A stretch of DNA of 64,000 nucleotides from positions 128,053-192,052 of the forward strand of contig JACPGJ010000007.1 of NCBI GenBank assembly GCA_016182555.1. The letters are read 5' to 3'. The stretch is from Candidatus Kerfeldbacteria bacterium. GTDB lineage: Bacteria > Patescibacteriota > Patescibacteriia > UBA9570 > XYC2-FULL-38-9. The position numbers were made by a program, and so were the translations under genes. Positions 23,021 through 55,173 of the stretch are shown here, piece by piece (the first letter of the stretch is position 1; each line of letters starts with the position of its first letter). The notes beneath the pieces are model-generated. The model was not told the DNA's origin. It did not search any database and saw only the letters and a program-made list of their open reading frames with translations.

Positions 23021-24085
23021 CTAATAGGTCGTATCAACAACACTTCCTCCACAACTACAACCAGAAACATCTAATCCTGGGCAAACTCCACACACAGATG
23101 TACTACCCGTATAACCAAAATGATGATCTTCGGTAATATGATTATGCTTGCTGGTTGATGGATTAAAATCTGGGTTATAGTTCAATACCTTCCAACCATA
23201 ACTGTTTGCTCCAATAACATTATATCCAGAAGTAGATTTATTCGTTACAACACAACCACCTTCATTACCACATGCCAGCCAATTATATTGAGCAATGGAG
23301 AGTGAACTGATATTCAAATCAACCGCACCTCCAGAAATATGCCCTTGATCACTACAATCCGGATCAGAAGGATGATCGCCAATACTATTGTCATGTAAAC
23401 ACTGCTGGTAACTAAACGAACGAAACATGTGGTTGGCGGGTATCTTCTTATTAAACTTTGCGTAAAATGTTGCCGCCATTAAATTCCAAGATCCCGCCGC
23501 ATTTGGTGCCAATTTGTGTACTGCCTTGGTAAGCATTTTTTGTGTGTATCGCGAGTCTACCGTAACCAAACCAGTGCACGTGGCATCATCCACGGTATTT
23601 GGACACACCCCTTTCGTATCGGTTGGTAACGGTGGTGCTTCAGATGCTTCAAAATCTTCTACTGGTGGCGTATTGGGTTTTGGAACAACAATGCTAGATA
23701 AGTCGGTCAATTTTGGATTCAAGGTATGCAAAATAAGGTAAGAACTCAATGCAAGCACTAACCCAGCCAAAGCGCTTGTTATTCCATCTTTGGCTTTAGT
23801 AATCGTGCCAGAATTTCCAGCTGCCGCCGCCCAGCGTAAACCATTATACATAATCATTACCGTGGCAAGAATAGCCACCGCACCAACAGCAAATTGATAG
23901 AGCGCTCCCATATAGTCCGCCAAATTGGTGGCAATAATTTTTGAACCAATACCAATTTCTAACTGAACAGGCGGGTTTGTTTGCGCAAATACTACTGCTG
24001 GGAACAAGACAAGAAGCGTCGCAAGAAAAAATTTATTTTTGTGCGTGGTCAATTTCATCTTGAACAATTTTTTTAATGTCATCAT
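23021..24085 (-). CDS. secreted/membrane protein fusing a VirB2/TrbC-pilin-like hydrophobic hairpin to a Cys-rich LAS/M15-type zinc peptidase-like domain
   Basis: 354 aa. Signal peptide (..LVLFPAVVFAQ). Two hydrophobic helices separated by a short polar loop (LYQFAVGAVAILATVMIMYNGL - RWAAAAGNSGTITKAKDG - ITSALAGLVLALSSYLILHTL). Then a domain with a peptidase M15-like SxHxxGxAxD pattern (SDQGHISGGAVDL) and a downstream ExxH (ITEDHHFGY), plus many Cys. Confidence 0.4.
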   Translation of the reverse strand: MMTLKKLFKMKLTTHKNKFFLATLLVLFPAVVFAQTNPPVQLEIGIGSKIIATNLADYMGALYQFAVGAVAILATVMIMYNGLRWAAAAGNSGTITKAKDGITSALAGLVLALSSYLILHTLNPKLTDLSSIVVPKPNTPPVEDFEASEAPPLPTDTKGVCPNTVDDATCTGLVTVDSRYTQKMLTKAVHKLAPNAAGSWNLMAATFYAKFNKKIPANHMFRSFSYQQCLHDNSIGDHPSDPDCSDQGHISGGAVDLNISSLSIAQYNWLACGNEGGCVVTNKSTSGYNVIGANSYGWKVLNYNPDFNPSTSKHNHITEDHHFGYTGSTSVCGVCPGLDVSGCSCGGSVVDTTY

Positions 24086-24782
24086 ACGTTTGAATCCCGC
24101 TGACTATTCTATTATTAATGTAATACGTCGGTGCTTCATCAACATCGAGTGATTTAGCAATGAAATATCCTTGCACGATCATCGATTTTTTTGCGGTATC
24201 CGAGAGACAGGTCGTAAATATATCCGTATCCAACCCTAAGTCGCCCGCCATAGTCACCCACGGACCCAGCACAAATTGAGATTGTTTCTGAAGCAACACA
24301 TCATGATACTGCCAAAATGCTCCCTGGTCTTGTGCACAACGCGCTGCCACAGCAGCATCTTCAGCGTATGGATGGACATTCGGTAAAGGAAAATCTTTCC
24401 ACACATGCAATACATCGCTCGGGTACTCAGCCACAATTTGCGCAATAACGCCGCTCATGGCTGCACAATTCTGACATTCAAAATCACCGAATTCAATAAT
24501 CGTGACTGTCGGTTTTGTCGCACCACGTTGTGGGTCAGTCACAAGTGGGTGTGGTTTTCCTCCTAATATTTCTTTGGGGACAACCGTCACCAATGGATCC
24601 ACTGATCGCGCAATAGTAGAATTATATAAACCTGAGTCATCTTTATGGCGCGCTTTTTCAACGCGCGCATTGATAATTTGTTGTATCACGCCCATCAATA
24701 CAATAGCAGCAACAAAAACGATAACCGAAAAGGTCATGAATAATGTTGATCGATGTTTTGGTTGAATAGGCATAATGCGCAA
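24033..24782 (-). CDS. membrane-anchored thioredoxin-fold DsbA-like thiol-disulfide oxidoreductase (CxxC = CQNC)
   Basis: 249 aa. N-terminal TM helix. FGDFECQNCAAM active-site-like motif. DsbA-like length and layout. Confidence 0.55.
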   Translation of the reverse strand: MRIMPIQPKHRSTLFMTFSVIVFVAAIVLMGVIQQIINARVEKARHKDDSGLYNSTIARSVDPLVTVVPKEILGGKPHPLVTDPQRGATKPTVTIIEFGDFECQNCAAMSGVIAQIVAEYPSDVLHVWKDFPLPNVHPYAEDAAVAARCAQDQGAFWQYHDVLLQKQSQFVLGPWVTMAGDLGLDTDIFTTCLSDTAKKSMIVQGYFIAKSLDVDEAPTYYINNRIVSGIQTYDDIKKIVQDEIDHAQK

Positions 24783-30846: not shown

Positions 30847-30862
30847 ACCTCAACAAATGAAA

Positions 30863-31390: not shown

Positions 31391-31411
31391 ATCGTACGTG
31401 TAGTGTAGCAG

Positions 31412-33403: not shown

Positions 33404-33446
33404 AGGTTCAATGGCGCATGTAAATTATGGTTGTTGTCTACGGCGT

Positions 33447-40769: not shown

Positions 40770-41366
40770 ATGGCCACAGCAGCCAGCAGGACGTTTTTAT
40801 TTTTCTTATTATTAACAAGTAACGCTATGTACATCATGTACGTTGATGTGACGCACCTGTTACAAGAAATTCCAGTCACTTTATTTTCGGTTGCTATTCA
40901 TAAAGCGGCATATTGGCAACAATACCCTTCTCAAAATCCATACGAAATTGCCTATATATTTCTCATTGAACAATATCAAAAATTTCTCCAAGCAAAAGAT
41001 GCACTAGGAATTTGTATTATTGATCCACGAGAGGGACAAGTACACAAGTCTTTTATTGGCCTTGAGCTTGATCAGATTCACCACTTAATGCAATGGGAAA
41101 AAAGTGATTCCTGGCATCCATGCCCAAATGTTATCGAGCGCGTGCTATTTTTTGGCATATTTGGAGGGGTGTGCACAGCAAATACACATGGGCTTGACTG
41201 TTTTTTCAATCATGATATACTATATATATCACCACGAAGAGCGCCCTATACGGTTCCGTCCGCATGGGGTTCTTTTCTTTTTGTGCTCATTTTTTCTGCT
41301 AGATCACTCACAAAAGAGATGTATTTTGAATCAAACTTTTTTAACAGCCCAGAATATTTTCGTTGA
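40770..41366 (+). pseudogene. low-confidence ORF or degenerate gene remnant spanning repeat copy B
   Basis: 198-aa ORF with no recognisable N-terminal motif. Overlaps the NYN gene on the opposite strand by about 120 nt and contains the conserved repeat. Region is otherwise an ~740-nt gap. Any resemblance to a DUF3800 C-terminal region is weak. Confidence 0.15.
41149..41190 (+). repeat. copy B of the conserved ~40-nt element
   Basis: tttttggcatatttggaggggtgtgcacagcaaatacacatg, followed by ggcttgac, which also follows copy C. Confidence 0.7.
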
Positions 41367-41764
41367 TTTGGAATAAGTAGTTTTTTTAATTTTTCCTGTT
41401 CAATGAAATATTGAACCAAACAGTGAAAATCACCATCTCCAGTAATGATGACTGCTTGATGATAATTCTGATATTCAATCATGGCGTGCAGCACCAATTC
41501 TGCATCACAATTCCCTTTTGTCTTGCCATCTTTATACATGAGTGTTGGTTTGAAAATACAGATGTATCCTGATTCTTGCAAATAGTGATAGAGCTGCTGA
41601 TGACCAGGAATATAACCAATAAACAAAAAAGCTTTCTGCACGGAATATTTTTCTTTTAAGTAAATTCGAAAACGAGCAAAATGTAACTTCCATCCTAATG
41701 CCCGAATACTCAAATTAAGATTTTGACTATCAATGAAGGCATAATTGTTTTCTTTTGTTAGCAT
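41246..41764 (-). CDS. NYN-domain (LabA/Zc3h12a-like PIN-fold) putative ribonuclease
   Basis: 172 aa. N-terminal AFIDSQNLNLSI (the DG-x-NL start of NYN domains). Downstream GNCDAELVLHAMIE and AVIITGDGDFHCLV, corresponding to the NYN SGDSDF acidic motif. Confidence 0.55.
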   Translation of the reverse strand: MLTKENNYAFIDSQNLNLSIRALGWKLHFARFRIYLKEKYSVQKAFLFIGYIPGHQQLYHYLQESGYICIFKPTLMYKDGKTKGNCDAELVLHAMIEYQNYHQAVIITGDGDFHCLVQYFIEQEKLKKLLIPNQRKYSGLLKKFDSKYISFVSDLAEKMSTKRKEPHADGTV

Positions 41765-41968: not shown

Positions 41969-42163
41969 AGAGCTTGACAAAATGGATGTTTTGGGAGTAG
42001 GCTTGGGGTAGATTTGTGCAAAGTGTGCCTTGAAAGAGGTGTGCTTTGCACTTGAAAATATGCCCGTGTTTTTATTCGCGTCGTTTGCAAAGCCAGCCTA
42101 TGGTTGGTTTGGCAATGCAGCGACGCGGCTACAATCAATGGCCGGGACTTCAAACCGGCCGGT

Positions 42164-42169
42164 TAGGAG
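42164..42169 (+). promoter_or_regulatory. Shine-Dalgarno sequence (AGGAGG) for the Asp/Cys-repeat gene
   Basis: AGGAGG 5 nt upstream of the ATG at 42175 (MRNWLLVLTALLGG signal peptide). Confidence 0.6.
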
Positions 42170-42174
42170 GGGTT

Positions 42175-42933
42175 ATGCGGAACTGGCTGTTGGTGCTCAC
42201 CGCCCTCCTTGGGGGGTTGGTGAGCGGTGGTTTTTCGTCGGCGCTCGCGGCCGACGTAGACGGCGACGGGTTTTACGGAACCACAGAGTACTGTGGTTCC
42301 GATGACCAAAACTATTATTATTGGTGTGACTGCAACGACGACGACCCCGCCATCAATCCCGAGGCGACGGAAGATTGCGACGGCGTCGACAACGACTGCG
42401 ACGGCCAAGTCGACGAGGCCGGTGATGACGGTGATCTGGACGGCTTCACAGATGATCCGTGTAACGATACGGACGACTGCGATGACACGAATCCGTCCAT
42501 GAACCCCGGCGCGGTCGAATTCTGCGACAACGCGGATAACGATTGTGATGGGACCATCGATGAAGGGGTTACCGTAAAGTACTACGTGGACGCAGACGGA
42601 GATGGGGCTGGTGATGCGAACACCGACCCCGTAGAAGCCTGCGATGGGTATGGTCCCGCAGGCTATTCAATCGGAGGTGACTGCAACGATAGCAACTCCG
42701 ACATCCGTCCAGGAACTGTCGAAACAGTTTGCGACGACGGCATCGACAACAACTGCGATGGGACTATCGATGAAGACACCGAATACTGCCTGGATGAGGA
42801 CGAAGGTGGCCTCGGGGAGGTGATTCCTGGGGGATGTTCTACATCTCCCGGCGCGCCACCCACCCGAGGGTGGGGAATCCTCGGCCTCGTCGTCGGCATC
42901 CTCGTCGGCTTTCGCCGCAGCAGCACGCGCTGA
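42175..42933 (+). CDS. secreted Asp/Cys-rich repeat protein (MopE-like putative metal/calcium-binding CxDxDCDG repeats) with C-terminal TM anchor
   Basis: Signal peptide. Repeated motifs (CDCNDDDPAINPEATEDCDGVDNDCDGQVDE; CDDTNPSMNPGAVEFCDNADNDCDGTIDE; CNDSNSDIRPGTVETVCDDGIDNNCDGTIDE). C-terminal hydrophobic segment GWGILGLVVGILVGF plus basic tail. The ORF track start at 42046 is rejected for the SD-preceded Met at 42175. Confidence 0.55.
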   Translation: MRNWLLVLTALLGGLVSGGFSSALAADVDGDGFYGTTEYCGSDDQNYYYWCDCNDDDPAINPEATEDCDGVDNDCDGQVDEAGDDGDLDGFTDDPCNDTDDCDDTNPSMNPGAVEFCDNADNDCDGTIDEGVTVKYYVDADGDGAGDANTDPVEACDGYGPAGYSIGGDCNDSNSDIRPGTVETVCDDGIDNNCDGTIDEDTEYCLDEDEGGLGEVIPGGCSTSPGAPPTRGWGILGLVVGILVGFRRSSTR

Positions 42934-43090
42934 ACAAGCGCAAACACGGGCAAGCGGGTGTAGAGACACAACAACATGGACGACCCATGTCTCTGCCCCC
43001 GCACAGCCTTAGTAAATATTTCTTCATGGTTGCTGTCATACTTCGACAAGCTCAGTATGACATGAGGAAGAAGTATGTAGTAAAGCAAAA

Positions 43091-43124
43091 ATCACCCCGC
43101 TTTTTTGGCGGGGTGATTTTTTTA
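43091..43124. terminator. bidirectional rho-independent terminator between convergent genes
   Basis: AAAAATCACCCCGC-ttttttg-GCGGGGTGATTTTTTT: perfect 10-bp GC-rich stem with an A-run on one side and a T-run on the other. Sits between the stop of the 42175..42933 gene and the stop (43122-43124) of the giant gene. Confidence 0.65.
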
Positions 43125-46100
43125 TGGTTTTACGTAGATGGTCTGGGTGTATTCGTCATAGGAAGTACAATCGCCATAATCAGTACGTACATTGTCACCA
43201 TCGGCTTCACCACTATGGATATCGCCGCTACAGAAATCCCAATTATCTTGAATCTGTACTTTAATATGGAATTCACACGCATACCGACCGGTATCATCAT
43301 CCGCATTCGGGTGATAATTTTCTGCCGGATTTGTTGGGTCACAAGTGTACACATACGTATACGAATGGCCAGGAGTAGACGCCGCTTCCCAATAATCGGT
43401 TTGTGCATCATTGGTATTGAACACGCTATCATCAGTGGCTTTCCAATCGATTTGAATTTGTTGCACCGGTTCTTGGTCTGGGTCGCTAGAGGAATCAAAA
43501 CCCAATATTACTGTATCGCCACTATCAATTACTATGGGTTCATTTGTATGTGTGTTCACCGTCATATTACTAATGCTTGGGCGAACGGCGCAATATTCGC
43601 TATCGTCTGTGCGCGTATTATTTTCACACACATCCATAGTGTCTGGATCTAAGAAATCGAAGGAACCATTTTCAGTGAATGCGGTTGGGAAGGTATCGTC
43701 AATTTTATCATCTTGGACAAAAGACAATAAACCCTCATTTCGTTTTGTATATGTAGAATCTTGGTTTGCAAACCACACCGTACGGCCTTGCATATCGGCA
43801 AAAAGTAACCGGTAACGTTTCCAGGCAATACTGGCGGCCGCGTTCAACTGGTCTAAATACGTAGTGTAATCTGCACCGACTCCGGCTCCGGAGAGCAAAC
43901 CACCAAAATTTGAACCGGAAGAACTAGAGCCACTCTCCTGTTCTTCAACATCGAGAATGCCGTCGCCATCATCATCGGTATCTATACTATCTATCATACC
44001 ATCATCGTCGTCGTCCGTATCATTAATATCTGGAATACCGTCTCCATCGGTATCTGTATCCATATCGATAGTAGTTTCCTCACTTGTATCACAACCATCT
44101 GTGCTACACCGTGCAGCGCTAAATGTTCCCTGGGTACTGAGGCTCGCCGCTGCAGTGGCTGGAGCAGCAGTAGCAGTATACGAAGCACCCATTTCACAAG
44201 TCGAACCCGCACCAACAGCCGTACAATCATCATTGCTATCGCAGACAACCGCTTGGCCATTCGGGTCTTTGGAGCTACAGATACCGGCTACTCCTATCCA
44301 GAGTGAATCGTTGGTACATGCACTCAAGGCAGTGGTCGGGCTGTAGGCGGTAGCATAATCGTTTTGGCAGACCGTGGCATTACACGAACCAATACACGCA
44401 TACGGCAGCGCCGACCCTTCACTTTGGTTTAAGTACACAAATGGTAAATTATCCTCTGCCGAAGCAGTGAAGTACGATAAACCATTATTTTTAATACCAT
44501 CAATTTGGCTAGGTTGACTGCCATTGTTGTCGCCACGCAGTGAACCAAACAATGCGTTCACTCCACTCATACTATACGTGTACCCGACATCAGGAATTTG
44601 ATAACCGGTGCTGCCCGTCACGCGTTCTTGCCATGGTGTGGCTTCGGCTTGTTCCGTTGCGCCTTCAACCAGCAACAAACACGGTTCTTTTAAGTAATAG
44701 GTCCAGGTCACTCCCTTCATATCACCAACATCCCAGCGGCGGATACCATCCCAATAAAACAAATATACTGCATCGAGATAACCATCGTTGAAGTCGAAAT
44801 TGACTCCAACAATATTAGCACCACAAGGACTACCGTCGCTACCATCATCACAATCACCATCGTAGATGGTATCAAAAGTACTAGGCACCTCATAATCTGA
44901 ACTGTAGCTATAACGACTGAAGAAATAATGGGCGTCTAAGGAAACACCATCTAGTGTTTGTGAACCTGCGTCTTCGGTACCGCTAATAACACCTTCAATG
45001 CCGTCACCTGCCCACGCCCCTGAACAAGCACCGGTGGTACATGACTTTAAACCAGAGAAACTAAATGGATTCAACGGTACAGAAGAATCGATACCATCTT
45101 CGATACTTTGATCATTATATACCGTATACATATCGGAATTGAAACCCTTAATCAGAAAACCAGCATCTTTACCGGTGACAGCTTTCACAAAAACCACATC
45201 CATGTCATTCAAACCGCTTTTAATAGAATCTTGCGTACAAATAGAACTACCACACCATACCCCAGACTGAAAAGCCGTAGCGGCATCTTCATTATTATCA
45301 TTGATTTCTTCGCCATCAAACGCACCAGAAAATTCTTCATAACCAGATTGATATAGTCGCGCCGTATTTTCTGGTTCTGGCAATGTTTCAGTCGATGTTT
45401 CTAAATCGGCGGTATCAAAACTTGTTTTACCGATCAACCAGGAATTACTCTCATGCGCGTAATTCTTCCCACCATAATTCTCTGGTGTACCAATATCAAA
45501 TGAGATACTGTCAATTTCTGAAACATGCACCAACTTATCTACATTGGAAGCCGGAAAGCGGCGGAATTTTGCGGCTTCAAGATTATCCTCATCATAATCT
45601 CCATGTGGATCATCATCAATATGCAAATCCACGGAATTGATAATTTTGTAGCCTTCGGTCGTTACGGTAACGGTTTCATTGTTTACGGTGTAGGTTGAGG
45701 TGCCATTGCCCAAACATTGACTATCTCCACAATCGCTTTTATCCGTACAAATAGTCCCATCGTCTAAACATGCGCCTAAATTCGCATTGCCCTTTGCCAC
45801 CAAACAATGGTACACCGGATATTTTTGTGAATAGCGCACCGCGGTACCACTGGAATTCTTGGAAGACCCGGCCACCGGCCACCACGCTACACAACGGCTG
45901 GAATCATTCAAATCTTGCTGTAAACAATATCCTTTCCAACCGGTATAAATAACCCCACTGTCATCAATGTAATCACAAGACAGCGAAGAATCTTCGGGGT
46001 ACGCACGGCAAGATTGGCCAATTAACCAAGCGGCATTATCAGAGTTCGGGTTATGTTGTTTATTCACTTCTATCGCCGGCTTCAACGATACATTATCAAT

Positions 46101-49100
46101 TACAAATGCCGGGTTATTCGCATCATTATCTTCGCGGAAAAACAAAGTGGAAGAAGAGGCTGGATCAAATTTATTTTCAATGGTGATCGGGCCAAGCACA
46201 TAGTGTTCGTAACTCGTGCTGAAGGTGAAATTGGAAACACTTGTCTGAATATCGGAGCTTATGTCGGTTAAAATAGTACTGTAGCTACCAGATATATCGT
46301 ACATACTCCCACCAAATGTTGGAGTAATGTCATTATATGCATAAACCGATGCAGGCTTCGTACAAGATGATTGGCCGCTGTCGCCACATGCGCTATTTAA
46401 CTCTTCCGCGTCACTCGCGATTGCCGGGCTATCATTACCAAACACAATGCTATAGAGGGTGTATGGTGTTTTCTGGAATTCGGCAATAAAATTTGTTTCG
46501 TCTGTTGGGTCCCATGCCGATGCGGTTTCCTCATCTTCTGCGGTGTCCGAATCGATATAGGTATCTTGTTCCGGCACAGTATCGGTAAGCAACACAATAA
46601 ATTGACCGGCGCCGGAACGAAAATCAATAGTACTGGTACCCGCACTATAGGTAAATGTGTTGTCAGCGATATTTTTTAATGCCTGGTAATTGTACGCCGA
46701 ACCACTTTCGAGATGGCCTGCGATAAAGTTCATGGCGGTTTGGAATGTGCTTGCACTGCTGGTCGTACTGGTGGTAATACCGTTGGTTGCACCATAATCA
46801 GTGGAGGCGTCACCACTGTCATCATAATCGCTGAAATCTAAAATTGCTGGGGTGCGGCCACCACCGGTAGTGACAATCGACACCTGGTAATCGATACCCG
46901 AATCTTCCAACCCTTGCACAATCGCACTGGTATTTGTAGCAATATTCGAAATATACGTTGACATACTCCCAGAAGCATCTATCACAAATACCAAATCTGC
47001 CTTCGCGTGGCCGGTTTCAAAATAATCCACATTTTCGAAATCGCTATCATGGGTGATGCCGATTTGCATCAAATCTTGCTCGGTCACATAATCAATAAAC
47101 TGTGCGTCAAAAGACAAGGTATATTCTTGACCCGGAATAATAGAACTCAAATCCACCGCCAGACCTTCTTGTGCACCGGTGGTTTGTGGCTGTACATACA
47201 TAACATTGTTCAAATCGAGTGTGGAGGCTGCCACTGCTGAACCTAAAACATCAACATCGGGGTGTGTATAATCTAATCCATCCTGGTAATCAATAATCAC
47301 CATTTGCGCATCACTCAGTGTGGTCCAATGGTTCCCCCCCCATATTTCGGTGGTTGTACCATCATCATTAACCGTTTGGACTACATTCTCACACCACCCT
47401 TGTTCATATTCAATATCTTCAATATTCGTATCAGTGGCTTTCTCAGCCTGCGCATCATCGCTAGCTATCACTGTTTGTACCACACTGTCGGTTTCAAGCG
47501 TGCGACAATGGTAATCCAGTGTACAGCTCATACTCTTATCACGCTGGCGTTCTAATTTGTTTACCGTAGAAGCATCGTAAATCAAATTTGTATCGGTGTA
47601 GCTGCCAATACCATCACAAGACACCTCTTCAAAATCACCCATCGGAACTAATTCGTCTTTCGCGCCACCCAAACCACGTTCAGGAATCCAATCTTCGGGG
47701 TAGTAGCCGTATGTTATTGCGTCTTCACACGTTGCATCACTATCACACACATTACCGCTGTTTGCTCCACCAACGCACGTTAGGCTGCTATCATCACAAT
47801 ATGCCCCAACCCATTGGCCACCAACCGAAGCGAACCCAGAGACATCAGCAATTTTTGCTAAATCAGAGGTATCACCAGGCTCCGAAACTACACTCACATC
47901 ATCATCATAACCAAGGGAACTAGCATCTGCTTGATCGGCCCATTGTAAACATTCACCCGTTGATTCATTTCGTTTTTTACACGTACGAATTTCCAAACAC
48001 GTTCCACCATTTTCGCTATCGCTGGTGCTATTGGGGTCCACTAAGGCGCACGCTAACCACTGCGCACATTCACGATCATTACGCACTTTCAGGATGGTAT
48101 TTGCATCTGCCGTATTCGGGCGAGAATCACAATTCGTGGTTCTGGTCGCCGCGTTGTATTCGCAGGTGGTAAAACTATACGACGTCTGCGTCTTGTTTGC
48201 TGCCGTTTGTTCTTCTTCTACGCTTGAAAGGTAAGATAATGAATCGTTCGTCGCATCACGGAACGCCACACAACCACTATCAATATTCACCACACCGGCG
48301 CAGGTATTTTCTTCCGATTCTGGTGCGCCATCAACGGAACTACTGATATAGGTATATTCCTCTTGCGGTGCAAATTCTAAGTTATCAAAGTAGACGGCTG
48401 AAGAATCATTTCCAGTTTCAATAAACACTTTCACGAAATAGGCATCAGCGGGAAATTCATGAATAAGATTCCGACCGATGGTTGCTTCAAAGCGAACCCA
48501 TTGATTGGTTGGAATCGTATCATCTGTTTCTGCACGGTCAACGCCTTCGTACGCCGCAATCGCATAATCAGAAGCAACATCATTTTCTACCGCTATCTCT
48601 TCACCTTGCAAATCGTAATAGAACAACCCAATCGCAAACGGCGTATCGGCGTTAGTCAGATACACATCTCCGGTGAGCGTATACATTCCATTCACATCAA
48701 CCGTGACCGTGTCTGATGTTGCCATACAATGTGTTGCGCTGTTCGTATTGGTGGCGAGCTTAAACGACATACCTGCATCAAAACTTGGTTCAGCGTCGCC
48801 AGAGACACCAAACGAATTACACGCAATAGTGGTTTGCGAATCGGCGTTGGCAAAAAATTCATTGCTGGTACCCGAACTTACCGCACTCCAGTTATCGGGA
48901 ATACCATCTGGAGAACCATCTGTGATATTCGTATTACTTCCTACATCTGTATTCATATTCCCGTTCGTCACCAAAGATTCCGTATTTGGGTCGACATATA
49001 AGGTACAACCAGCAAAATCATCATTACACGAACCGACCCAACCGGAATTGTCATCAACATTAGCAGAACAGCGGTGAATCACACCATCAGCGCCGGTACA

Positions 49101-52100
49101 ATCGGTATCTGAACTACACAATTTTTGGTCACGATCGCCGCCCACACAAATCGCTCCTTTTGGTTGCGATGGCGCAAGAGACCATTCACCATCACTTTGC
49201 AGCGGACAAGGCGTACCATCTGGTTTTTCCCATTCGCCAGCCGCATCATTATAGGTACACAGTTTTTCTCCAGGATTCTGGAAATATTCCACCGAACCGT
49301 CCGCGGTGGTGTAGGCGCTACAAGAACGTTGCTGCTCTTGGCAGAGCGCCGTATCATACGTATCAGGATCATTAATGAGGTACGTAGAATTAAAGGAGGT
49401 CACATTTCCATCTGCATCTAGTGTTGGTTCACCAAACAGTGAACAACCAGCAACATCATCACTACTACACATAACTGAATCATTCACAGCGTAGGTCACC
49501 ACATTATCAACCGGCACGCTCACATCATCTTCACTATATTCATTATCCGTATTGTAATCCTGTTGATATGGTGAATCCGAATTATGGGTATCAAACAACG
49601 CCTGGCAGCCCACCACGCTTTCATCACAGAGCGAGCTAAACGATTTGAGATACTGCGTTTCATCATCAGAATCCTTGTATTCCTCACAACCTTCAAAACC
49701 AGTACACAAATCTGAAGTACCATGAATGAGATAATGGCTCACATTCAACCGTAATTCCACTGTATCGATATTCGCTTGTTGCCCTTCATAGAAGAAGCCA
49801 AATGTTTCGTCGGAGTTCACCCCATTCGGGAATACAAATGGGCCAACCAAATATTCCTGCCATTCGGTGCCGAGCTCCACTCCGCTATCGTCAAGGTTTT
49901 GCACTTGGCCACTGGTGGCGGAGAAGAAGAATGGATACAAGTGTACGGTATCTGCCGCATTCGATTTTTTTGCCCAGAAGGAAACCACATAACTACTGTC
50001 TGCGTTTAACATTTCCGCAACGCTAGTCGTTGCCGATGTTTGACCATTCGTCGTGCCAGTGCCAATCGCCATCGACAAACCGGTATTGGCAGTAATCACT
50101 TCAGAAGATGCTTCCCCGCCACTCCAAACGCTGCTATCAAAATCTTCATCTAAAATCACCTGCGCATCGCCGCCTTGCGAACCTTCATATTCACGACACA
50201 AATTCGCACTCGAAGGACAACTCGTGCTTTCAGAAGTTAATGCATAATACGTTCTACCGTCTTCGTTATTGCGGATACCGCTACATTCATCGGATACCGC
50301 AATTGTTGCTGACTTCAACACATGATAGACTTCACCATCCGCATCATAATATTCCGTACAATCCGGGTTAGTGGCCATATCGCTTGCGGCGCACGTTTGC
50401 GGCGTGAGTTGGTCATCAATACAATCTGCTTGAGCGGTTTGTGCAGAACCACCATAGACATCCAAGTTCGTACACGGCGCGCTACTTGCATTACTCTTCT
50501 TCAAATACCACGTACGTAATTGATACCCAGAGACATCAGATCCTTCAAATGTATAGTAATATCCAATTTCGTCTGCATCAACTTGCGCCTGAGTTTCTTG
50601 AACACATTGTTTGATGTAGGTATAATATTCAATTTCTTCACCGCCAGTCGTTGTATTTTCCAAGTTGGTGTACGCTTCACAACCAACATAAGTCGCCGAA
50701 CAACTTTCACCAGTAGATGGAATAATCGAAATGGTTGGCAAACAGGCTGCGCCACCACACACATCGATCGTGCCGGATGGATCACACGCTGTTTCGCTAT
50801 CCTCACAATAATAACCGGTGCGAGAAAGTATGGCACTCACCGCATCGTCCGACATCGCATCAATCTGCTCCTGCGTGAAGCCAGAAATATCACTGATTGG
50901 TGCATTAAGCGATGTTGGATTTTCAATATAGGCATCACAACCCACCTGCTCTGCACTACATTGTGAACAGGCCGGGTTGTCTAAATTATCACCATTGCCA
51001 CAAGCGTCTGATAATGAATTCGTAATAATACCTGGAACAGCCGTGGTGCTTTCACCGCTTTGTGGGGTATACAGCATACAACCAACTTCATCAACGGAAC
51101 ACGCCTGTGCTTCATTCGTATTGATCGTAATACGGTCAGCACCATAATCCGTAAAACTGGTTAAGGCGTCATTAGTTTCGACAAGAGAAACCCCATCTAA
51201 CGCCAAGCTACAACCGGTTGTGGCATAAATATTTACACGAATTGTACTACTGTCTTCATCTGGCCCGAAAGTAACAATCCCGGAATTGATTTGTTGAAAA
51301 TCGCTGGCGGTTGTATATGACGCAGTGGCGGCATGCGATTCTCCGGAATCAGCATTAATTTCATAATTGCCTGTGCAGGAATCGGTATCAGAAGTATTTT
51401 TGTAAAAATAACTTAACACAAACGATCGGTTTGCGAGTGGCTGCACCGTATCCACCACGGCGCTGATATGTCCGTCGGAGTTATTTTCCTGCAATTCTAA
51501 CATCACGGAACCATTCAGTGCTTGTTGTACCGCACGTGCACTCACCCCATCTATTTGTGACCATCCATAACAGGTTCCATCAACTGAACTCTGGCAAGGT
51601 TCACCACTATTCACATCACCAGTGTCTCCATAAAAACCGAACGTATCTGCGCCGTAGGTCGAAGTTTCATCCAGACTTGGTAATGTCGCAATATCATCAA
51701 CGGTTGGATCTTTGAAACTATTAAACTCTTCAAAACTACCGTTAAAAAGAATATTCCCGCCTTTGAGTGAAATATATTCGGCGCAGCCACCATCGGCTGA
51801 ATCACACGCTTGTACATCATCATCAAAAGAAATGGCAGAATCGATATTCGCTTCTTCATCTGTCTGCGTACCAAGCGTACAGGTTGTATTGCCCTCTGTG
51901 GTACAGGAATATGCTCCATACTCTATGGTACAGGTTTGCGAGTCACTCGCTGTACAACTACACCCATTTTCGTCACCACAGACCGTATAGGTTTCTCCTT
52001 GATTGGCACACAGGAACTCTCCACTATCCGTGACTTCCGTACAATACCATTGACACCCCGCATTACTGGAATCACAATCGTTATAATTCAATGTATTTTG

Positions 52101-53906
52101 CAAATAGGATGCATCATTTCCATCTTCATCTGTATAAGATGTACACGATGCTTCATACGCCGGACAGGATTCACCTTCAAAGCGATAAATGCGTTTTTGT
52201 TTTGTGCAATAGCCATACGCCTCGCAATTACCGCTTTCATCTTCAGACAAACACGATTGTGAATCCACACAACTGGATAAACGGGTAATCAATTGTTCGT
52301 CTGGTGAGTACGGATTGCCATCTAAATCGGCAAAACTTTCGTTCGCAATGACCTCCCCATACGATTCTGTTTTACATAACACATCTGGGGCTTTGAGTAC
52401 CCAGTTCGGATCGATTAAACCACAATAGGGCGAATAATTATCAGTGCTACAATGATCAAAGGCATCGACTAATTGACCAAGGGTGACCTGATCTTCACTA
52501 GCATCTTTATCAAAATCTTGATAATAATTTGCGGCCAACTCCCACCCAACAGGTACCACGCTATATTGACGCAATACAATAACATTTCGCAACGAAATGC
52601 CATCATTCGGGTTCGTACTATCAACCCCGAAAGGAGTATCTGCGGGAATACGCTGAGCATCAATCGCTTCTTTCACAGACATTCCTTCTTCAATTGCTGA
52701 ACGGAACCCTTCATTGATAACGCAATTCGTCACATCTTGACCTTGTTCAGGGCAGTTGGCAAAATGGGTCAAAATATCGACAGTGCCACCACTCGTAAAC
52801 GCTGGTGTTCGAAATGATGCAAATTTTTCCTGCGCACCAATAATGCCGGAACTATGGCTGGTTGTTGACCCGGAACCGGATAACGACTCAGAAATATCTT
52901 TATCCGTAAAAAAACTTAATAAACCACTGCTCACATTTTCTAACAACTTGGCCGCCAGAGTATTCACAAATACAGACAACGCATCTGCAACGATATTATC
53001 TTGCTGAATCGTTTCTGCGCCCGTCGCATTGTTAATGGTGGTAACGAGTTGGTTCACCACAAGCGTGGAAGGCGTTTCAATATAGCCAGAAATTTTTGCT
53101 GCCTTATCCTTCGCGTCTGATTTCAACCGTTCAATTTCGGCCTCACGCTCTGCCGCTGCCTGTTCACCGCTAATATCATCCCAAGCGATAAGTAATGTGG
53201 ACAAACCATTGGCTCCATCATCATAGGTCGCAGATAAATTCACAAAGGATGTGGGGTCTTCTGCAAAACTCAATGCTTGGTCGTAGACATTATTTCCAAA
53301 ATTCGTGAGTGCCTCGCTCGCTTTACAACGTGCTTTATAGGGTAACTGTTCCTGTGGTAAATTCAGATTCGGCAAATCAATGCCGCTGAGCCGTGCCAGT
53401 GTGACATTCACATTAATACTCACGTCCGGATTCAAGTTACACAGATCGAGCTTCATATATCCATTTTCGCTCCCAAGCGTATCAAGAAATGCTCCAGCAG
53501 CAGAATCACCAGCGTCGGCTAAATAGCTACCAATATCTTTTGTAAACAGTAATGGCTTCTGATTTTTGTCTCCAGAACCAATCCAAACAGCGGTATCGTA
53601 GGCAATTTTTTCAAGGAATGAACGAATGGCATTTTTCACGCCCACTTTTCCAGCCGTGATCAAGCCCTCTTTCACAAACGTGAGCACTTTATTTGCAATA
53701 TCAGGCACACTCACCACCACCGATGTTGGAAGTTGCGCGTATGCTGGGGCAGGTGTGGCTCCAAACACCAAGACCATAAGCACAATAGCGAGAGAAGCAC
53801 TGATAGAAAAAATCTGTCGTTTTCCACGCTGAGCGAAAGATTGTAAACGTTTCCAAGCGTTGATATGCATACGACTATGGCTGCTGATTGGTGTTATTGG
53901 TATCAT
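43122..53906 (-). CDS. giant (3594 aa) Cys-rich extracellular protein with N-terminal signal/anchor, a vWA (MIDAS) domain and C-terminal TSP3-like calcium-binding repeats; putative adhesin
   Basis: Single uninterrupted 10.8 kb ORF. N-terminal hydrophobic segment (ISASLAIVLMVLVFGATPAPAYAQ). DxSxS MIDAS motif (LVFVIDASGSMS). Hundreds of Cys in Thr/Ser/Asp-rich context. C-terminal DTDTDGDGIPDINDTDDDDDGMIDSIDTDDDGDGILD. Confidence 0.7.
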   Translation of the reverse strand: MIPITPISSHSRMHINAWKRLQSFAQRGKRQIFSISASLAIVLMVLVFGATPAPAYAQLPTSVVVSVPDIANKVLTFVKEGLITAGKVGVKNAIRSFLEKIAYDTAVWIGSGDKNQKPLLFTKDIGSYLADAGDSAAGAFLDTLGSENGYMKLDLCNLNPDVSINVNVTLARLSGIDLPNLNLPQEQLPYKARCKASEALTNFGNNVYDQALSFAEDPTSFVNLSATYDDGANGLSTLLIAWDDISGEQAAAEREAEIERLKSDAKDKAAKISGYIETPSTLVVNQLVTTINNATGAETIQQDNIVADALSVFVNTLAAKLLENVSSGLLSFFTDKDISESLSGSGSTTSHSSGIIGAQEKFASFRTPAFTSGGTVDILTHFANCPEQGQDVTNCVINEGFRSAIEEGMSVKEAIDAQRIPADTPFGVDSTNPNDGISLRNVIVLRQYSVVPVGWELAANYYQDFDKDASEDQVTLGQLVDAFDHCSTDNYSPYCGLIDPNWVLKAPDVLCKTESYGEVIANESFADLDGNPYSPDEQLITRLSSCVDSQSCLSEDESGNCEAYGYCTKQKRIYRFEGESCPAYEASCTSYTDEDGNDASYLQNTLNYNDCDSSNAGCQWYCTEVTDSGEFLCANQGETYTVCGDENGCSCTASDSQTCTIEYGAYSCTTEGNTTCTLGTQTDEEANIDSAISFDDDVQACDSADGGCAEYISLKGGNILFNGSFEEFNSFKDPTVDDIATLPSLDETSTYGADTFGFYGDTGDVNSGEPCQSSVDGTCYGWSQIDGVSARAVQQALNGSVMLELQENNSDGHISAVVDTVQPLANRSFVLSYFYKNTSDTDSCTGNYEINADSGESHAATASYTTASDFQQINSGIVTFGPDEDSSTIRVNIYATTGCSLALDGVSLVETNDALTSFTDYGADRITINTNEAQACSVDEVGCMLYTPQSGESTTAVPGIITNSLSDACGNGDNLDNPACSQCSAEQVGCDAYIENPTSLNAPISDISGFTQEQIDAMSDDAVSAILSRTGYYCEDSETACDPSGTIDVCGGAACLPTISIIPSTGESCSATYVGCEAYTNLENTTTGGEEIEYYTYIKQCVQETQAQVDADEIGYYYTFEGSDVSGYQLRTWYLKKSNASSAPCTNLDVYGGSAQTAQADCIDDQLTPQTCAASDMATNPDCTEYYDADGEVYHVLKSATIAVSDECSGIRNNEDGRTYYALTSESTSCPSSANLCREYEGSQGGDAQVILDEDFDSSVWSGGEASSEVITANTGLSMAIGTGTTNGQTSATTSVAEMLNADSSYVVSFWAKKSNAADTVHLYPFFFSATSGQVQNLDDSGVELGTEWQEYLVGPFVFPNGVNSDETFGFFYEGQQANIDTVELRLNVSHYLIHGTSDLCTGFEGCEEYKDSDDETQYLKSFSSLCDESVVGCQALFDTHNSDSPYQQDYNTDNEYSEDDVSVPVDNVVTYAVNDSVMCSSDDVAGCSLFGEPTLDADGNVTSFNSTYLINDPDTYDTALCQEQQRSCSAYTTADGSVEYFQNPGEKLCTYNDAAGEWEKPDGTPCPLQSDGEWSLAPSQPKGAICVGGDRDQKLCSSDTDCTGADGVIHRCSANVDDNSGWVGSCNDDFAGCTLYVDPNTESLVTNGNMNTDVGSNTNITDGSPDGIPDNWSAVSSGTSNEFFANADSQTTIACNSFGVSGDAEPSFDAGMSFKLATNTNSATHCMATSDTVTVDVNGMYTLTGDVYLTNADTPFAIGLFYYDLQGEEIAVENDVASDYAIAAYEGVDRAETDDTIPTNQWVRFEATIGRNLIHEFPADAYFVKVFIETGNDSSAVYFDNLEFAPQEEYTYISSSVDGAPESEENTCAGVVNIDSGCVAFRDATNDSLSYLSSVEEEQTAANKTQTSYSFTTCEYNAATRTTNCDSRPNTADANTILKVRNDRECAQWLACALVDPNSTSDSENGGTCLEIRTCKKRNESTGECLQWADQADASSLGYDDDVSVVSEPGDTSDLAKIADVSGFASVGGQWVGAYCDDSSLTCVGGANSGNVCDSDATCEDAITYGYYPEDWIPERGLGGAKDELVPMGDFEEVSCDGIGSYTDTNLIYDASTVNKLERQRDKSMSCTLDYHCRTLETDSVVQTVIASDDAQAEKATDTNIEDIEYEQGWCENVVQTVNDDGTTTEIWGGNHWTTLSDAQMVIIDYQDGLDYTHPDVDVLGSAVAASTLDLNNVMYVQPQTTGAQEGLAVDLSSIIPGQEYTLSFDAQFIDYVTEQDLMQIGITHDSDFENVDYFETGHAKADLVFVIDASGSMSTYISNIATNTSAIVQGLEDSGIDYQVSIVTTGGGRTPAILDFSDYDDSGDASTDYGATNGITTSTTSSASTFQTAMNFIAGHLESGSAYNYQALKNIADNTFTYSAGTSTIDFRSGAGQFIVLLTDTVPEQDTYIDSDTAEDEETASAWDPTDETNFIAEFQKTPYTLYSIVFGNDSPAIASDAEELNSACGDSGQSSCTKPASVYAYNDITPTFGGSMYDISGSYSTILTDISSDIQTSVSNFTFSTSYEHYVLGPITIENKFDPASSSTLFFREDNDANNPAFVIDNVSLKPAIEVNKQHNPNSDNAAWLIGQSCRAYPEDSSLSCDYIDDSGVIYTGWKGYCLQQDLNDSSRCVAWWPVAGSSKNSSGTAVRYSQKYPVYHCLVAKGNANLGACLDDGTICTDKSDCGDSQCLGNGTSTYTVNNETVTVTTEGYKIINSVDLHIDDDPHGDYDEDNLEAAKFRRFPASNVDKLVHVSEIDSISFDIGTPENYGGKNYAHESNSWLIGKTSFDTADLETSTETLPEPENTARLYQSGYEEFSGAFDGEEINDNNEDAATAFQSGVWCGSSICTQDSIKSGLNDMDVVFVKAVTGKDAGFLIKGFNSDMYTVYNDQSIEDGIDSSVPLNPFSFSGLKSCTTGACSGAWAGDGIEGVISGTEDAGSQTLDGVSLDAHYFFSRYSYSSDYEVPSTFDTIYDGDCDDGSDGSPCGANIVGVNFDFNDGYLDAVYLFYWDGIRRWDVGDMKGVTWTYYLKEPCLLLVEGATEQAEATPWQERVTGSTGYQIPDVGYTYSMSGVNALFGSLRGDNNGSQPSQIDGIKNNGLSYFTASAEDNLPFVYLNQSEGSALPYACIGSCNATVCQNDYATAYSPTTALSACTNDSLWIGVAGICSSKDPNGQAVVCDSNDDCTAVGAGSTCEMGASYTATAAPATAAASLSTQGTFSAARCSTDGCDTSEETTIDMDTDTDGDGIPDINDTDDDDDGMIDSIDTDDDGDGILDVEEQESGSSSSGSNFGGLLSGAGVGADYTTYLDQLNAAASIAWKRYRLLFADMQGRTVWFANQDSTYTKRNEGLLSFVQDDKIDDTFPTAFTENGSFDFLDPDTMDVCENNTRTDDSEYCAVRPSISNMTVNTHTNEPIVIDSGDTVILGFDSSSDPDQEPVQQIQIDWKATDDSVFNTNDAQTDYWEAASTPGHSYTYVYTCDPTNPAENYHPNADDDTGRYACEFHIKVQIQDNWDFCSGDIHSGEADGDNVRTDYGDCTSYDEYTQTIYVKP
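43975..44080 (-). other. thrombospondin type 3-like / calcium-binding Asp-rich repeats near the C-terminus of the giant protein
   Basis: Encodes DTDTDGDGIPDINDTDDDDDGMIDSIDTDDDGDGILDVEE (DxDxDGxxD pattern). Confidence 0.5.
46500..47010 (-). other. von Willebrand factor A (vWA) domain within the giant protein (approximate bounds)
   Basis: MIDAS motif DASGS encoded around 46962-46985 on the minus strand, followed by an alternating hydrophobic/polar pattern over ~170 aa typical of vWA. Confidence 0.55.
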
Positions 53907-54741
53907 TCACATTCTCATTATCCGCTGGCGCATTGACATCTGGTTGCTTCAATGCTTGTTCAATAACGGTATTAAATAATTCATCGAGTTCCGTATCAGA
54001 GAGCTTATCAATTTCTGCACTTGATACACCAGATTTGGCTAACAATGCTCGTTTTTCATCTGCTGTCATGCTTCGAACGGCATCAGCATATTGGGTAATA
54101 TCGACCTGTGGATTCGTGCCATTTTTTGATTGTTCAACGGTTTGTTGGAAAGCCGCAATCAGCTGTTCATCATTCATCTTTTCTAAAACATCAACGGGCA
54201 CGCCATATTGCTGAAGTGTTGTACGCAGCTTGGCTGTATCAATGTTGCCGTTCTGATCGACACCAAGCAAATCGTCGGGGTTAAATTCGGCAAAGGCTTG
54301 TTGTGCATCGGTGGCTGTACCGTTGGTATTCCCATTGGTTCCTTCCGTGCGGGTTTGCGCACAATCTCCCCCTTCCGGGCAGTTAGGGTTCGTACCGGCA
54401 CTCAATTCATCTTTATCAGTAATGCTATCTGAGTCTGAATCCGCTAGATAAGCGCTGGTACTGTAATAATATTGCTCTTCAAAATCGCTTAAGCCATCAC
54501 TATCTGAATCTTGATTTTGCAATTCCGCTAATGATTTTGCTTCATCAGATTGGTCTAATGCGCTATTGGTATGCTGATTTGTTAATTGTTCACGAATTTT
54601 TGTTAGCACGGTTTTATCACGCGCGAATAAATGCGCACGCACTTGTAATGCTCCGGTAAAAAAAATAAGAATACTAATGATAAAAACCAACCACTTGGAC
54701 ACTTTTGGTACTGAATCAATGCTTTTTATTTTTTGCTCCAT
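53875..54741 (-). CDS. membrane-anchored protein with TSP3-like Asp-rich repeats, upstream partner of the giant gene
   Basis: 288 aa. N-terminal TM helix (WLVFIISILIFFTGAL). DSDSDGLSDFEEQ and DSDSDSITDKDEL repeats. Its 3' end overlaps the start of the giant ORF by 32 nt, indicating the same operon. Confidence 0.45.
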   Translation of the reverse strand: MEQKIKSIDSVPKVSKWLVFIISILIFFTGALQVRAHLFARDKTVLTKIREQLTNQHTNSALDQSDEAKSLAELQNQDSDSDGLSDFEEQYYYSTSAYLADSDSDSITDKDELSAGTNPNCPEGGDCAQTRTEGTNGNTNGTATDAQQAFAEFNPDDLLGVDQNGNIDTAKLRTTLQQYGVPVDVLEKMNDEQLIAAFQQTVEQSKNGTNPQVDITQYADAVRSMTADEKRALLAKSGVSSAEIDKLSDTELDELFNTVIEQALKQPDVNAPADNENVNDTNNTNQQP

Positions 54742-54853
54742 TTTTTGCCATTTTTTTGAAAAATGAATGGTGTGATTATATCATTTACTGTAGCGTTAGT
54801 CAAAGGCAAAAATAACGACTTGCAAAATTTAAAAATTTATGTTATAAATAAAG

Positions 54854-55168
54854 ATGATTATGGATATACAATTTCACGAACTGCTCCAAAAAATCGTTCG
54901 CGAAGCACACCACACTGAACTTCCAACAGCACTGGAAGAAAAAATGATTATGGATTTGTCTATCCAACTGGAGCAGAGGCTGGAAGACAGCATTGCGAAC
55001 GCCTTAACGCCTGAACAAAATATGGCGTACCAACAATTATTAGAAGCAGAGCACACACAAACACAGGTTCTTGAGTTTCTGCACACACATATTCCAAATA
55101 TCAAAAAACGTTTTGAAGAAACTATTGCCCAATTTCGACAAGATTATTTGACTACTGTTCAACGATAA
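54854..55168 (+). CDS. small helical hypothetical protein, upstream partner of the 1468-aa ORF
   Basis: 104 aa, all-helical-looking. Ends 5 nt before the start of the next gene. Confidence 0.35.
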   Translation: MIMDIQFHELLQKIVREAHHTELPTALEEKMIMDLSIQLEQRLEDSIANALTPEQNMAYQQLLEAEHTQTQVLEFLHTHIPNIKKRFEETIAQFRQDYLTTVQR

Positions 55169-55173
55169 TACCT

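Follow-up and report, generated by a model that had tools for sequence, protein, structure and literature searches.

Does a reading frame of several thousand codons in a bacterial genome of about 1 Mb encode one real protein, and if so, what would such a protein do? The 64,000-nt stretch of a Candidatus Kerfeldbacteria metagenome-assembled genome (Patescibacteria, or candidate phyla radiation, CPR) that was analysed here, referred to as the window, raises this question with an uninterrupted single open reading frame (ORF) of 3594 codons counted from its first ATG (43122..53906, minus strand). Judged by its sequence, the encoded giant protein is a member of a large, previously undescribed family of giant Cys-rich Patescibacteria proteins. 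It is very probably an exported, disulfide-rich surface or extracellular structural protein, and on balance we favour reading it as a Sec-exported, disulfide-stapled surface fibre or adhesin scaffold. The narrower proposal that it acts as an adhesin for a host or partner cell is one that we hold tentatively.

An earlier note on this DNA had proposed a giant single ORF, and the frame did not break into several genes on reanalysis. An independent Logan contig (SRR12113422) encodes the identical protein, the 3512-aa orthologue P0144 aligns with residues 26-3593 in one high-scoring segment pair (HSP) at 47% identity, and the giant protein is colinear, from the N-terminus to the last residues, with over 100 family representatives (2300-3660 aa) that come from unrelated samples. 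Because of these three observations we do not regard the ORF as a fusion or frameshift artefact, and the chance that assembly joined several genes, for which no support was found, is negligible. Broken versions of a homologous giant gene, split into many called pieces (e.g., 857 + 2239 aa), were seen on low-coverage long-read contigs (L003 and L004), suggesting that members of this family are easily fragmented or misannotated. Both the NCBI record MBI2410891.1, annotated as "VWA domain-containing protein" on a 293-kb contig, and the Logan assembly place the start at M13 (53870), 4 nt past the stop codon of the upstream gene; the first in-frame ATG (53906) overlaps that gene by 32 nt. The mature protein is unchanged whichever start is used, and residue numbers below count from the first ATG.

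43122..53870, minus strand: extent of the giant gene in the NCBI and Logan calls (M13 start, 3582 aa).

The extent of the family was established by an exhaustive profile search with the N-terminal ~600 aa against 1.84 billion representative proteins, which returned 1986 representatives at E<=1e-3, 1350 at E<=1e-10, and 1165 at E<=1e-30. The best 150 of these proteins were mostly 2400-3000 aa long, the longest reaching 3660 aa. When 185,579 species were scanned, each through a single genome, 451 loci emerged; their ORFs were either complete at 2316-2616 aa or longer than 2600 aa and running off the fetched stretch, with a median Cys content of 3.6%. Among the best 80 of the 451 loci, the record titles name Kerfeld-, Falkow-, Buchanan-, or Uhrbacteria or the Parcubacteria/Patescibacteria group, with some carrying other labels that look unreliable. 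The giant protein shares with this family the motifs AYDTAxW, RKYRIIPVGWELAA, and LIDPNWVLKAP, a Cys-hairpin scaffold, a conserved module at residues 2613-2712, the C-terminal ending ...DNW.[WF]C, and an upstream partner gene encoding a transmembrane (TM) protein with thrombospondin type 3 (TSP3) repeats. We found no description of the family, the partner, or their synteny in limited searches of the literature.

Several loci (L009-L011, L014, L015, and L031, among others) and the protein P0019 are titled "uncultured Gammaproteobacteria," "Bdellovibrionales," or "Deltaproteobacteria" despite Patescibacteria-type synteny. Since the same contigs carry this CPR-type synteny and, in L009-L011, a KsgA 57-61% identical to that of the window, these titles look wrong, or the contigs may have been mis-binned. 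A word-indexed protein search recovered no family member over ~1650 aa, compared to the more than 100 proteins of 2300-3660 aa from the exhaustive search. With the N-terminal ~600 aa as the query, word-indexed searches returned only fragments, of equally Cys-rich Patescibacteria proteins, and with a 36-sequence profile only 14 short fragments. Giant proteins seem to be under-recovered by this type of search.

The high Cys, Thr, Ser, and Asp content claimed for the protein was confirmed: it contains 10.5% Ser, 10.2% Asp, 9.0% Thr, and 3.28% Cys (118 residues), with only 4.2% Lys plus Arg. The remaining 35 gene products in the window have 0.66% Cys, one-fifth of this level, and the Cys spacing in the giant protein is far from random. 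Gaps of 5-10 residues between adjacent Cys occur 49 times, compared to 18.7 +/- 3.8 in shuffled sequences, and the aromatic-type motif C-x4-9-C-x2-[YFWL] occurs 18 times, compared to an expected 3.3 +/- 1.9, with 11 of the 18 reading ...GC-x2-aromatic. When 117 distant representatives (~27% overall identity) were compared, 53 of the 118 Cys positions were kept in at least 80% of them.

The sole strongly hydrophobic stretch of the giant protein spans residues ~30-50 and is followed by AYA|Q.

53736..53870, minus strand: signal-peptide-like N-terminus, residues 13-57, with a K/R-rich n-region, a 19-residue hydrophobic core, and AYA|Q.

A K/R-rich n-region and hydrophobic core are common to 109 of 114 family members, most of them then with an AxA-like site. 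The N-terminal segment had been described as an anchor; the hydrophobic segment is there, but because AYA|Q follows the core and the layout is so widely kept, a cleaved Sec signal peptide is more likely than an anchor. Cleavage was read from the layout of the sequence. Neither a lipobox, a second TM segment, nor a C-terminal hydrophobic or TM segment was found in the giant protein, and a search for LPXTG with a C-terminal TM segment yielded one loose match, IPSTG at residue 1062. The window also contains a membrane-anchored DsbA-like gene (24033..24782; Thioredoxin_4, 75 bits; TM segment; CQNC active site). The gene is real, but it lies 18 kb from the giant gene, within a type IV secretion system (T4SS)-like cluster, and is therefore not "nearby" as had been stated. 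From the signal-like N-terminus, the 5-fold Cys enrichment, the conserved Cys positions, and the DsbA-like gene, we infer with good support that the protein is exported and disulfide stabilised. This part of the earlier reading as a "disulfide-stabilised adhesin" is supported, and the adhesin part is weighed below.

To map conservation, we aligned the giant protein with 117 full-length representatives. Conserved blocks alternate with lineage-specific ones (family occupancy below ~0.2 for the first of these) as follows.

Residues 63-612: conserved (N-terminal domain).
Residues 913-960: conserved.
Residues 1013-1062: lineage-specific.
Residues 1063-1660: conserved.
Residues 1663-1712: lineage-specific.
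Residues 1863-2010: conserved.
Residues 2113-2162: lineage-specific.
Residues 2363-2512: lineage-specific (von Willebrand factor A domain, vWA).
Residues 2613-2712: conserved (the best conserved, 42% mean identity).
Residues 2713-3062: lineage-specific.
Residues 3063-3212: conserved.
Residues 3213-3412: lineage-specific (contains a DxDxDG triplet).
Residues 3413-3594: conserved.

The family is defined by its N-terminal domain, of which a single part was modelled with confidence.

52047..53720, minus strand: family-defining N-terminal domain, residues 63-620, mostly helical, with AYDTAxWIGSG..GQKPLF, RKYRIIPVGWELAA, and LIDPNWVLKAP invariant.
52386..52778, minus strand: compact mixed alpha/beta sub-domain, residues 377-507, the sole confident part of the N-terminal domain (predicted local distance difference test, pLDDT, 85-97).

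AlphaFold2 (AF2) models of residues 13-620 reached a pLDDT of 54 with 24 sequences and 60 with 47 sequences and, outside residues 377-507, consisted mostly of low-confidence helices. When both models were compared with the PDB by Foldseek, the best E value was about 2, amounting to coiled-coil/BAR-domain noise. The N-terminal domain has no Pfam, NCBIfam, or PDB match, either by sequence profile or by fold.

Along the rest of the protein, jelly-roll domains alternate with C-x5-7-GC-x2-Y hairpins.

47577..52271, minus strand: Cys-hairpin and jelly-roll scaffold, residues 546-2110, with most of the 18 C-x4-9-C-x2-[YFWL] motifs.
51177..51773, minus strand: candidate jelly-roll 1, residues 712-910, starting "NILFNGSFEEF" (family consensus "NLLxNSSFE"); tentative.
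49722..50174, minus strand: jelly-roll 2, residues 1245-1395, like carbohydrate-binding module (CBM) families 4/9; CBM_4_9 at 16.9 bits, below threshold.
48342..48989, minus strand: candidate jelly-roll 3 (residues 1640-1855), proposed on sequence pattern and the alignment of the family, with a lineage-specific insert at ~1663-1712.
46032..47414, minus strand: jelly-roll 4, residues 2165-2625, interrupted by the vWA domain; CBM_4_9 at 17.5 bits with the vWA spliced out.

In the giant protein itself, both CBM_4_9 matches fall below the cut-off of 25.9 bits, and the assignments lean on aligned relatives. The segment of P0030 aligned with jelly-roll 2 matches CBM_4_9 at 30.3 bits, and the segment of P0037 aligned with jelly-roll 4 matches MAM at 34.7 bits (cut-off 26.4). 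For candidate jelly-roll 1, the aligned P0030 segment matches CBM_4_9 weakly (17.3 bits), and candidate jelly-roll 3 has no Pfam support. CBM_4_9 is the sole recurrent Pfam family among the 33 members scanned, present in 21 of them (13/16 in one set and 8/17 in the other). Jelly-rolls of the CBM family 4/9/22 and MAM types thus recur in the family, with relatives' segments above threshold; glycoside hydrolases pair such CBMs with a catalytic domain, and none was found in the giant protein, where the matches are sub-threshold. A few members carry scattered accessory modules, namely cohesin, MAM, and beta-propeller-like domains (Rax2, DUF5122), as in P0176 and in the jelly-roll 4 segment of P0037.

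The remaining blocks lie toward the C-terminus.

45771..46070, minus strand: best-conserved module outside the N-terminal domain, residues 2613-2712, consensus QSCRLYPxxDSLSCDY..SG...KGWxGYCLEYD....C..WWPVD.
44721..45770, minus strand: lineage-specific region, residues 2713-3062, no recognisable domain, occupancy 0.06-0.32, weak SMMA_C match.
44271..44720, minus strand: C-proximal module, residues 3063-3212, conserved in the family.
43125..43670, minus strand: C-terminal domain, residues 3413-3594, consensus VDWGDGE and end ...KIKDNWGWC (IDWKATDD and IQDNWDFC in the giant protein).

Identity in BLAST HSPs over the 2613-2712 module was 33-40%. Pfam, NCBIfam, and the sequences in the PDB offered no match to this module, to the 3063-3212 module, or to the C-terminal domain. 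A Pfam scan of the spliced conserved modules of 16 members gave zero matches, and the PKD-like C-terminal domain that the WGDG motif suggested by eye is unsupported by that scan. PDB sequence searches with the whole giant protein or with a profile of the conserved C-proximal modules returned nothing significant, NCBIfam gave no match to the giant protein, and self-BLAST revealed no tandem internal repeats.

Two features stood out in the earlier note, the vWA domain and the DxDxDG motifs. The vWA domain is present, PF00092 matching residues 2304-2452 at 26.3 bits in the whole protein (cut-off 23.8) and at 36.3 bits (E 8.5e-9) in the excised segment. It lies within a longer insertion.

46230..47093, minus strand: insertion holding the vWA, residues 2272-2559 (Pfam VWA 2304-2452), with the conserved LLTD motif; family occupancy <0.2.
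46965-46979: DASGS, residues 2310-2314.

Besides the giant protein, this insertion is present only in the nearest Kerfeldbacteria relatives (L007, L008, and P0144), and it is absent from relatives at 46-48% identity. L010 has ~40 aa where the giant protein has 288 aa, and the module that relatives align to residues 2165-2625 is a contiguous 150-168 aa, consistent with a vWA that sits inside jelly-roll 4. On this alignment, the vWA is a recent insert that only one subclade of Kerfeldbacteria carries. The claim of an intact metal ion-dependent adhesion site (MIDAS) held in part: DxSx[ST], here DASGS, and the LLTD Asp are invariant in all four orthologues carrying the insertion, but the expected Thr position ("GGxT") seems, by sequence alignment alone, to read SA, SA, QV, and LV. 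The domain is like the integrin I-domain-like vWA adhesion domains in combining DxSxS with the LLTD Asp and differs from them in that the MIDAS Thr was not located and in being a rare, recent addition to its family. A PDB sequence search with the vWA segment found nothing significant.

The DxDxDG repeats had been called terminal. Three such motifs are present, but they end 275 aa before the C-terminus.

43950..44054, minus strand: three DxDxDG..D acidic loops, residues 3285-3319 (regular expression D.D.D[GN]..[DN]), inside the insert 3213-3412.

The insert has a family occupancy of 0.12-0.15, and the triplet is lacking even in the 47%-identical orthologue P0144. No Pfam TSP3 model (PF18884, TSP3_bac, or PF02412) matched at E<=1, either in the whole giant protein or in excised residues 3250-3335, a segment that drew no match from any other Pfam family. 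Because the vWA was found only in the nearest relatives and in 2 of the 33 members scanned, and because the DxDxDG triplet is lacking in P0144, both are, by alignment, peripheral and lineage-specific inserts in a conserved scaffold rather than family-defining features. The label "VWA domain-containing protein" therefore names a subclade-specific insert that makes up ~4% of the protein.

The gene upstream of the giant gene encodes the partner protein, and its stop codon lies 4 nt ahead of M13.

53875..54741, minus strand: operon partner, 288 aa; a TM segment at the N-terminus is followed by two TSP3-type repeats (DSDSDGLSDFEE / DSDSDSITDKDELSAGTNPNCPEGGDC) and a C-terminal part that is helical.
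54775..54803, minus strand: best sigma-70-like promoter match in the region, TTGACT-17-TATAAT with a TG extension; a consensus match only.
43087-43121, no strand assigned: bidirectional intrinsic-terminator hairpin, shared with a convergent MopE-like gene.

TSP3_bac (PF18884) scored 19.4 bits against the partner (cut-off 25), and the precomputed match of a homologue was marked weak. The consensus of 71 partner homologues contains two canonical TSP3 repeats, KDTDGDGLSDYDEL and DSDSDGxxDxxEIxxGxDPNCPxGxxC, and in these the partner would be like bacterial TSP3 proteins; the DxDxDG triplet of the giant protein matches no TSP3 model. Partner homologues have a median length of 254 aa, and 67 of the 71 have an N-terminal TM segment. 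The promoter match, 34 nt upstream of the partner's start codon, fits a two-gene operon. At the other end, the strong bidirectional terminator described in the earlier note was confirmed: the hairpin (-22.7 kcal/mol, z -7.7) begins 3 nt past the stop codon of the giant gene and is flanked by A- and T-tracts. The adjacent operon members had been said to carry Asp-rich repeats; this applies to the upstream 288-aa gene, and the downstream MopE-like gene is convergent and so lies outside the operon.

The arrangement is kept across the family, with a fixed order of ksgA, partner, and giant gene in relatives. Of 73 loci, 60 have a partner homologue in the same orientation no more than 900 nt upstream, a number that rises to 68 when any distance is allowed. 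In 54 of 67 loci ksgA also lies upstream in this orientation, and sua5/tsaC and leuS are often found farther out. In the window, two divergent genes (54854-59580, plus strand) are inserted between ksgA and the partner: one for a 1468-aa protein that matches no Pfam family and has a hydrophobic stretch rich in Gly and Ala at its centre, the other a small DUF5663 gene. Relatives such as L007 have ksgA right next to the partner.

These features suggest the following model. The partner and then the giant gene would be transcribed as a two-gene operon from the promoter upstream of the partner, ending at the hairpin. The N-terminal signal peptide would direct the giant protein through Sec and would probably be cleaved at AYA|Q. 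Outside the cell, a membrane-anchored DsbA-type oxidoreductase may form some 50-60 disulfides, as the observed Cys pattern suggests, many of which would close the short C-x5-7-GC-x2-aromatic hairpins and stiffen the connectors between globular modules. The product would be an elongated, very acidic surface fibre with its conserved N-terminal domain closest to the cell, where, more speculatively, the TSP3 region that the membrane partner exposes outside the cell might serve as its dock. Cys-rich modules, four jelly-rolls resembling CBM4/9 or MAM, and the C-terminal domain would reach outward. Going by domain type, the jelly-rolls may be lectin-like binding modules for glycans or for the surfaces of a partner cell or matrix, the vWA in jelly-roll 4 could be a further binding module in the Kerfeldbacteria subclade, and the DxDxDG triplet may bind Ca2+. 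The window also encodes a membrane glycosyltransferase of the PMT_2 type (dolichyl-phosphate-mannose protein mannosyltransferase-like; 2083-3978, minus strand); we speculate that it could O-glycosylate Ser/Thr-rich surface proteins such as the giant protein.

An adhesin role is plausible from domain type: the jelly-rolls are lectin-like (CBM4/9 or MAM type), and a vWA is present. Several points weigh against reading the protein as a surface fibre or adhesin scaffold. Strict ksgA/tsaC synteny over hundreds of species is untypical of adhesins, which tend to vary, to occur in multiple copies, and often to be gained by horizontal transfer. Within the giant protein itself, only 149 of 3582 residues lie under an above-threshold Pfam match, the jelly-roll assignments are sub-threshold and rest on aligned relatives, and the MIDAS Thr was not located, Ala or Val seeming to occupy the expected site. 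Accessory binding domains are rare, a VWA occurring in 2 and a MAM in 1 of the 33 members scanned (the second set, n=17, matched CBM_4_9 only). The functional core is uninterpreted because the N-terminal domain, the 2613-2712 module, and the C-terminal domain have no relatives in Pfam or the PDB, by sequence or fold. If the signal peptide is cleaved, it would leave no identified feature for retention at the cell, the partner as a dock being a guess. A vertically conserved, fixed-locus family with a dedicated partner is no less what one would expect of a core surface structure than of a variable host-attachment factor.

The main rival follows from this last point. The protein might be a core envelope component rather than an adhesin, that is, a constitutive scaffold that spans the wall or coats the surface, is held by the TM/TSP3 partner, and gives the envelope of such ultra-small cells shape or protection, much as Gram-positive bacteria have giant wall-associated proteins that contribute to envelope integrity. 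The fixed gene order (54 of 67 loci), the recurrence of the partner (60-68 of 73), a breadth of at least 451 species and at least 1165 clusters, the end-to-end conservation with 53 near-invariant Cys, and the rarity of accessory binding domains would all be expected of such a scaffold. Against it, the recurrent lectin-type jelly-rolls and the gain of vWA, MAM, or cohesin modules in subclades suggest ligand binding, no SLH or other wall-binding domain was detected by Pfam, and classical S-layer proteins contain little or no Cys. We consider this explanation unlikely, but it and the adhesin reading are not mutually exclusive.

It is improbable that the protein is instead shed after cleavage and released as a polysaccharide-binding or matrix protein, binding extracellular glycans for nutrient capture, biofilm matrix, or aggregation. 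The cleavable-looking signal peptide in a protein with no LPXTG, lipobox, or second TM segment would suit release, and CBM4/9-type modules are typical of glycan-binding proteins, but no catalytic or transport partner is linked to the gene. The conserved operon partner is a membrane protein, suggesting a cell-associated complex, and the cost of 3582 aa in a genome of about 1 Mb would argue against a product that is freely lost.

Membership of a known giant class, whether a type I secretion system (T1SS) RTX adhesin, a sortase-anchored MSCRAMM (microbial surface component recognizing adhesive matrix molecules), an Rhs/YD polymorphic toxin, or a giant cell-wall-degrading enzyme like those of the Omnitrophota, is very improbable: only size, acidity, and Asp-rich motifs speak for it, compared to the lack of tandem repeats by self-BLAST, of any RTX, Big, Rhs/YD, LPXTG, or catalytic domain in Pfam and NCBIfam scans, an export signal that is N-terminal rather than C-terminal, and a C-terminus that is a conserved domain rather than a variable toxin tip. 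Giant RTX adhesins (LapA, SiiE, and MpIBP) are very large, acidic, Ca2+-dependent modular fibres with ligand-binding modules, some of them vWA or sugar-binding; they are exported by T1SS via a C-terminal signal and have RTX nonapeptides, long near-identical arrays of Ig-like repeats, and almost no Cys. In the model above, the giant protein would resemble them as a very large, acidic, and probably Ca2+-dependent modular surface fibre, but it has a predicted N-terminal Sec signal, no internal repeats, no RTX or Big domains, and 118 Cys, and a T1SS RTX adhesin was ruled out. Ebh, Embp, and the LPXTG MSCRAMMs are giant proteins that single-membrane cells export by Sec to their surface, where they act in adhesion or in the envelope; they have tandem repeats, are anchored by a C-terminal TM segment or a sortase motif, and are not Cys-rich. 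The giant protein differs in each of these three respects, and we ruled out an LPXTG surface protein on the basis of the lone IPSTG at 1062 and the lack of a C-terminal hydrophobic segment. An S-layer protein was ruled out in view of the 118 Cys and the lack of an SLH domain, and an Rhs/YD polymorphic toxin in view of the lack of such Pfam matches and a C-terminal domain conserved to the last residues. With the defining features of the RTX/T1SS, LPXTG, S-layer, and Rhs classes all missing from its sequence, the predicted protein is outside every characterised giant-adhesin class.

Giant proteins have also been noted in another Patescibacterium. The ten longest proteins of Vampirococcus lugosii, of 1392-4163 aa, are membrane or surface giants that have been proposed to be host-recognition or attachment factors (Moreira et al. 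2021, PMC8080830). The likeness lies in a giant, surface-predicted protein with interaction-type domains in an ultra-small Patescibacterium. Compared by domain content, the Vampirococcus proteins have WD40, PKD, DUF11, integrin, and fibronectin domains, whereas the giant protein has a Pfam-dark core, CBM4/9-like jelly-rolls, and Cys hairpins; the family, the partner gene, and the synteny are not described in PMC8080830. The giant proteins of the Omnitrophota are far larger and are tied to cell-wall degradation (West-Roberts et al. 2023, bioRxiv 10.1101/2023.11.21.568195). They too come from very long genes, easily fragmented in assemblies, in ultra-small bacteria suspected to be host-dependent, but no degradative domain was found in the giant protein, and CPR giants are not treated in 10.1101/2023.11.21.568195.

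Other genes in the window were also examined. The T4SS-like cluster occupies 23021-36671 (minus strand) and includes the following, as well as several proteins without a Pfam match, among them proteins of 663 and 1074 aa.

23021-24085, minus strand: T4SS_pilin-domain protein with 10 Cys.
28199-30109, minus strand: VirB4/TraG P-loop ATPase.
30863-31390, minus strand: PrgI-family protein.

A functional link between this cluster and the giant gene was rejected, as a low-GC island lies between them and relatives keep the giant gene by ksgA. That stretch, from 36 to 42 kb (GC 0.37-0.39 vs. ~0.45), may be a mobile island; it holds an NYN-domain gene (41246-41764) and a DUF3800-V RNA (Rfam RF02964, 62 bits; 36898-36996, plus strand) adjoining a DUF3800 gene (37048-37692, minus strand). 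The product of the convergent MopE-like gene (42046-42933, plus strand) is 295 aa long, contains 17 Cys and 20.7% Asp plus Glu, and shows three motifs of the Cu-binding_MopE type (99.7 bits). It has a signal-like N-terminus and a C-terminal "GCSTS...hydrophobic...RRSSTR" tail resembling a CTERM-type sorting signal. Because the local GC of 0.505 exceeds that of the surroundings, the gene may have been acquired horizontally. Further away, a tRNA-Ser(gct) (16326-16415) lies within the 5' end of a listed 615-aa ORF (16246-18093, plus strand), so the true start of this ORF is probably downstream of the tRNA.

Host attachment and interaction in CPR/Patescibacteria are largely unknown, the exceptions being a few Saccharibacteria and Absconditabacteria in culture. 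As a concept, a giant modular surface protein is ordinary, and the value of this one lies in being a widespread, testable candidate for the CPR cell-surface or host-contact apparatus. What is gained is a very large family, counting 1165 clusters and 451 species loci or more, whose core lacks a Pfam model and whose members have a partner gene and a fixed position. Its predicted extracellular disulfide framework of about 50 conserved Cys and its lectin-like modules offer a defined target, in many lineages, for metaproteomics, labelling in cryo-electron tomography, structure prediction, and binding tests with recombinant protein. Such giant genes are systematically fragmented or missed in short-read assemblies and word-indexed searches. 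A bolder reading, which we regard as unlikely as it stands, is that the giant protein and its TM/TSP3 partner form the structural core of a Patescibacteria-specific surface organelle, a contact fibre that Ca2+ and disulfides would stabilise and that the membrane partner would dock, with new folds and with inserts that tune specificity. If this were so, the dark N-terminal, central (2613-2712), and C-terminal modules would be new folds for docking and host contact, and the inserted vWA here, like the MAM, cohesin, or beta-propeller modules elsewhere, would tune partner specificity. The family would then provide both a genomic marker and an experimental handle for how uncultured episymbionts touch their hosts.

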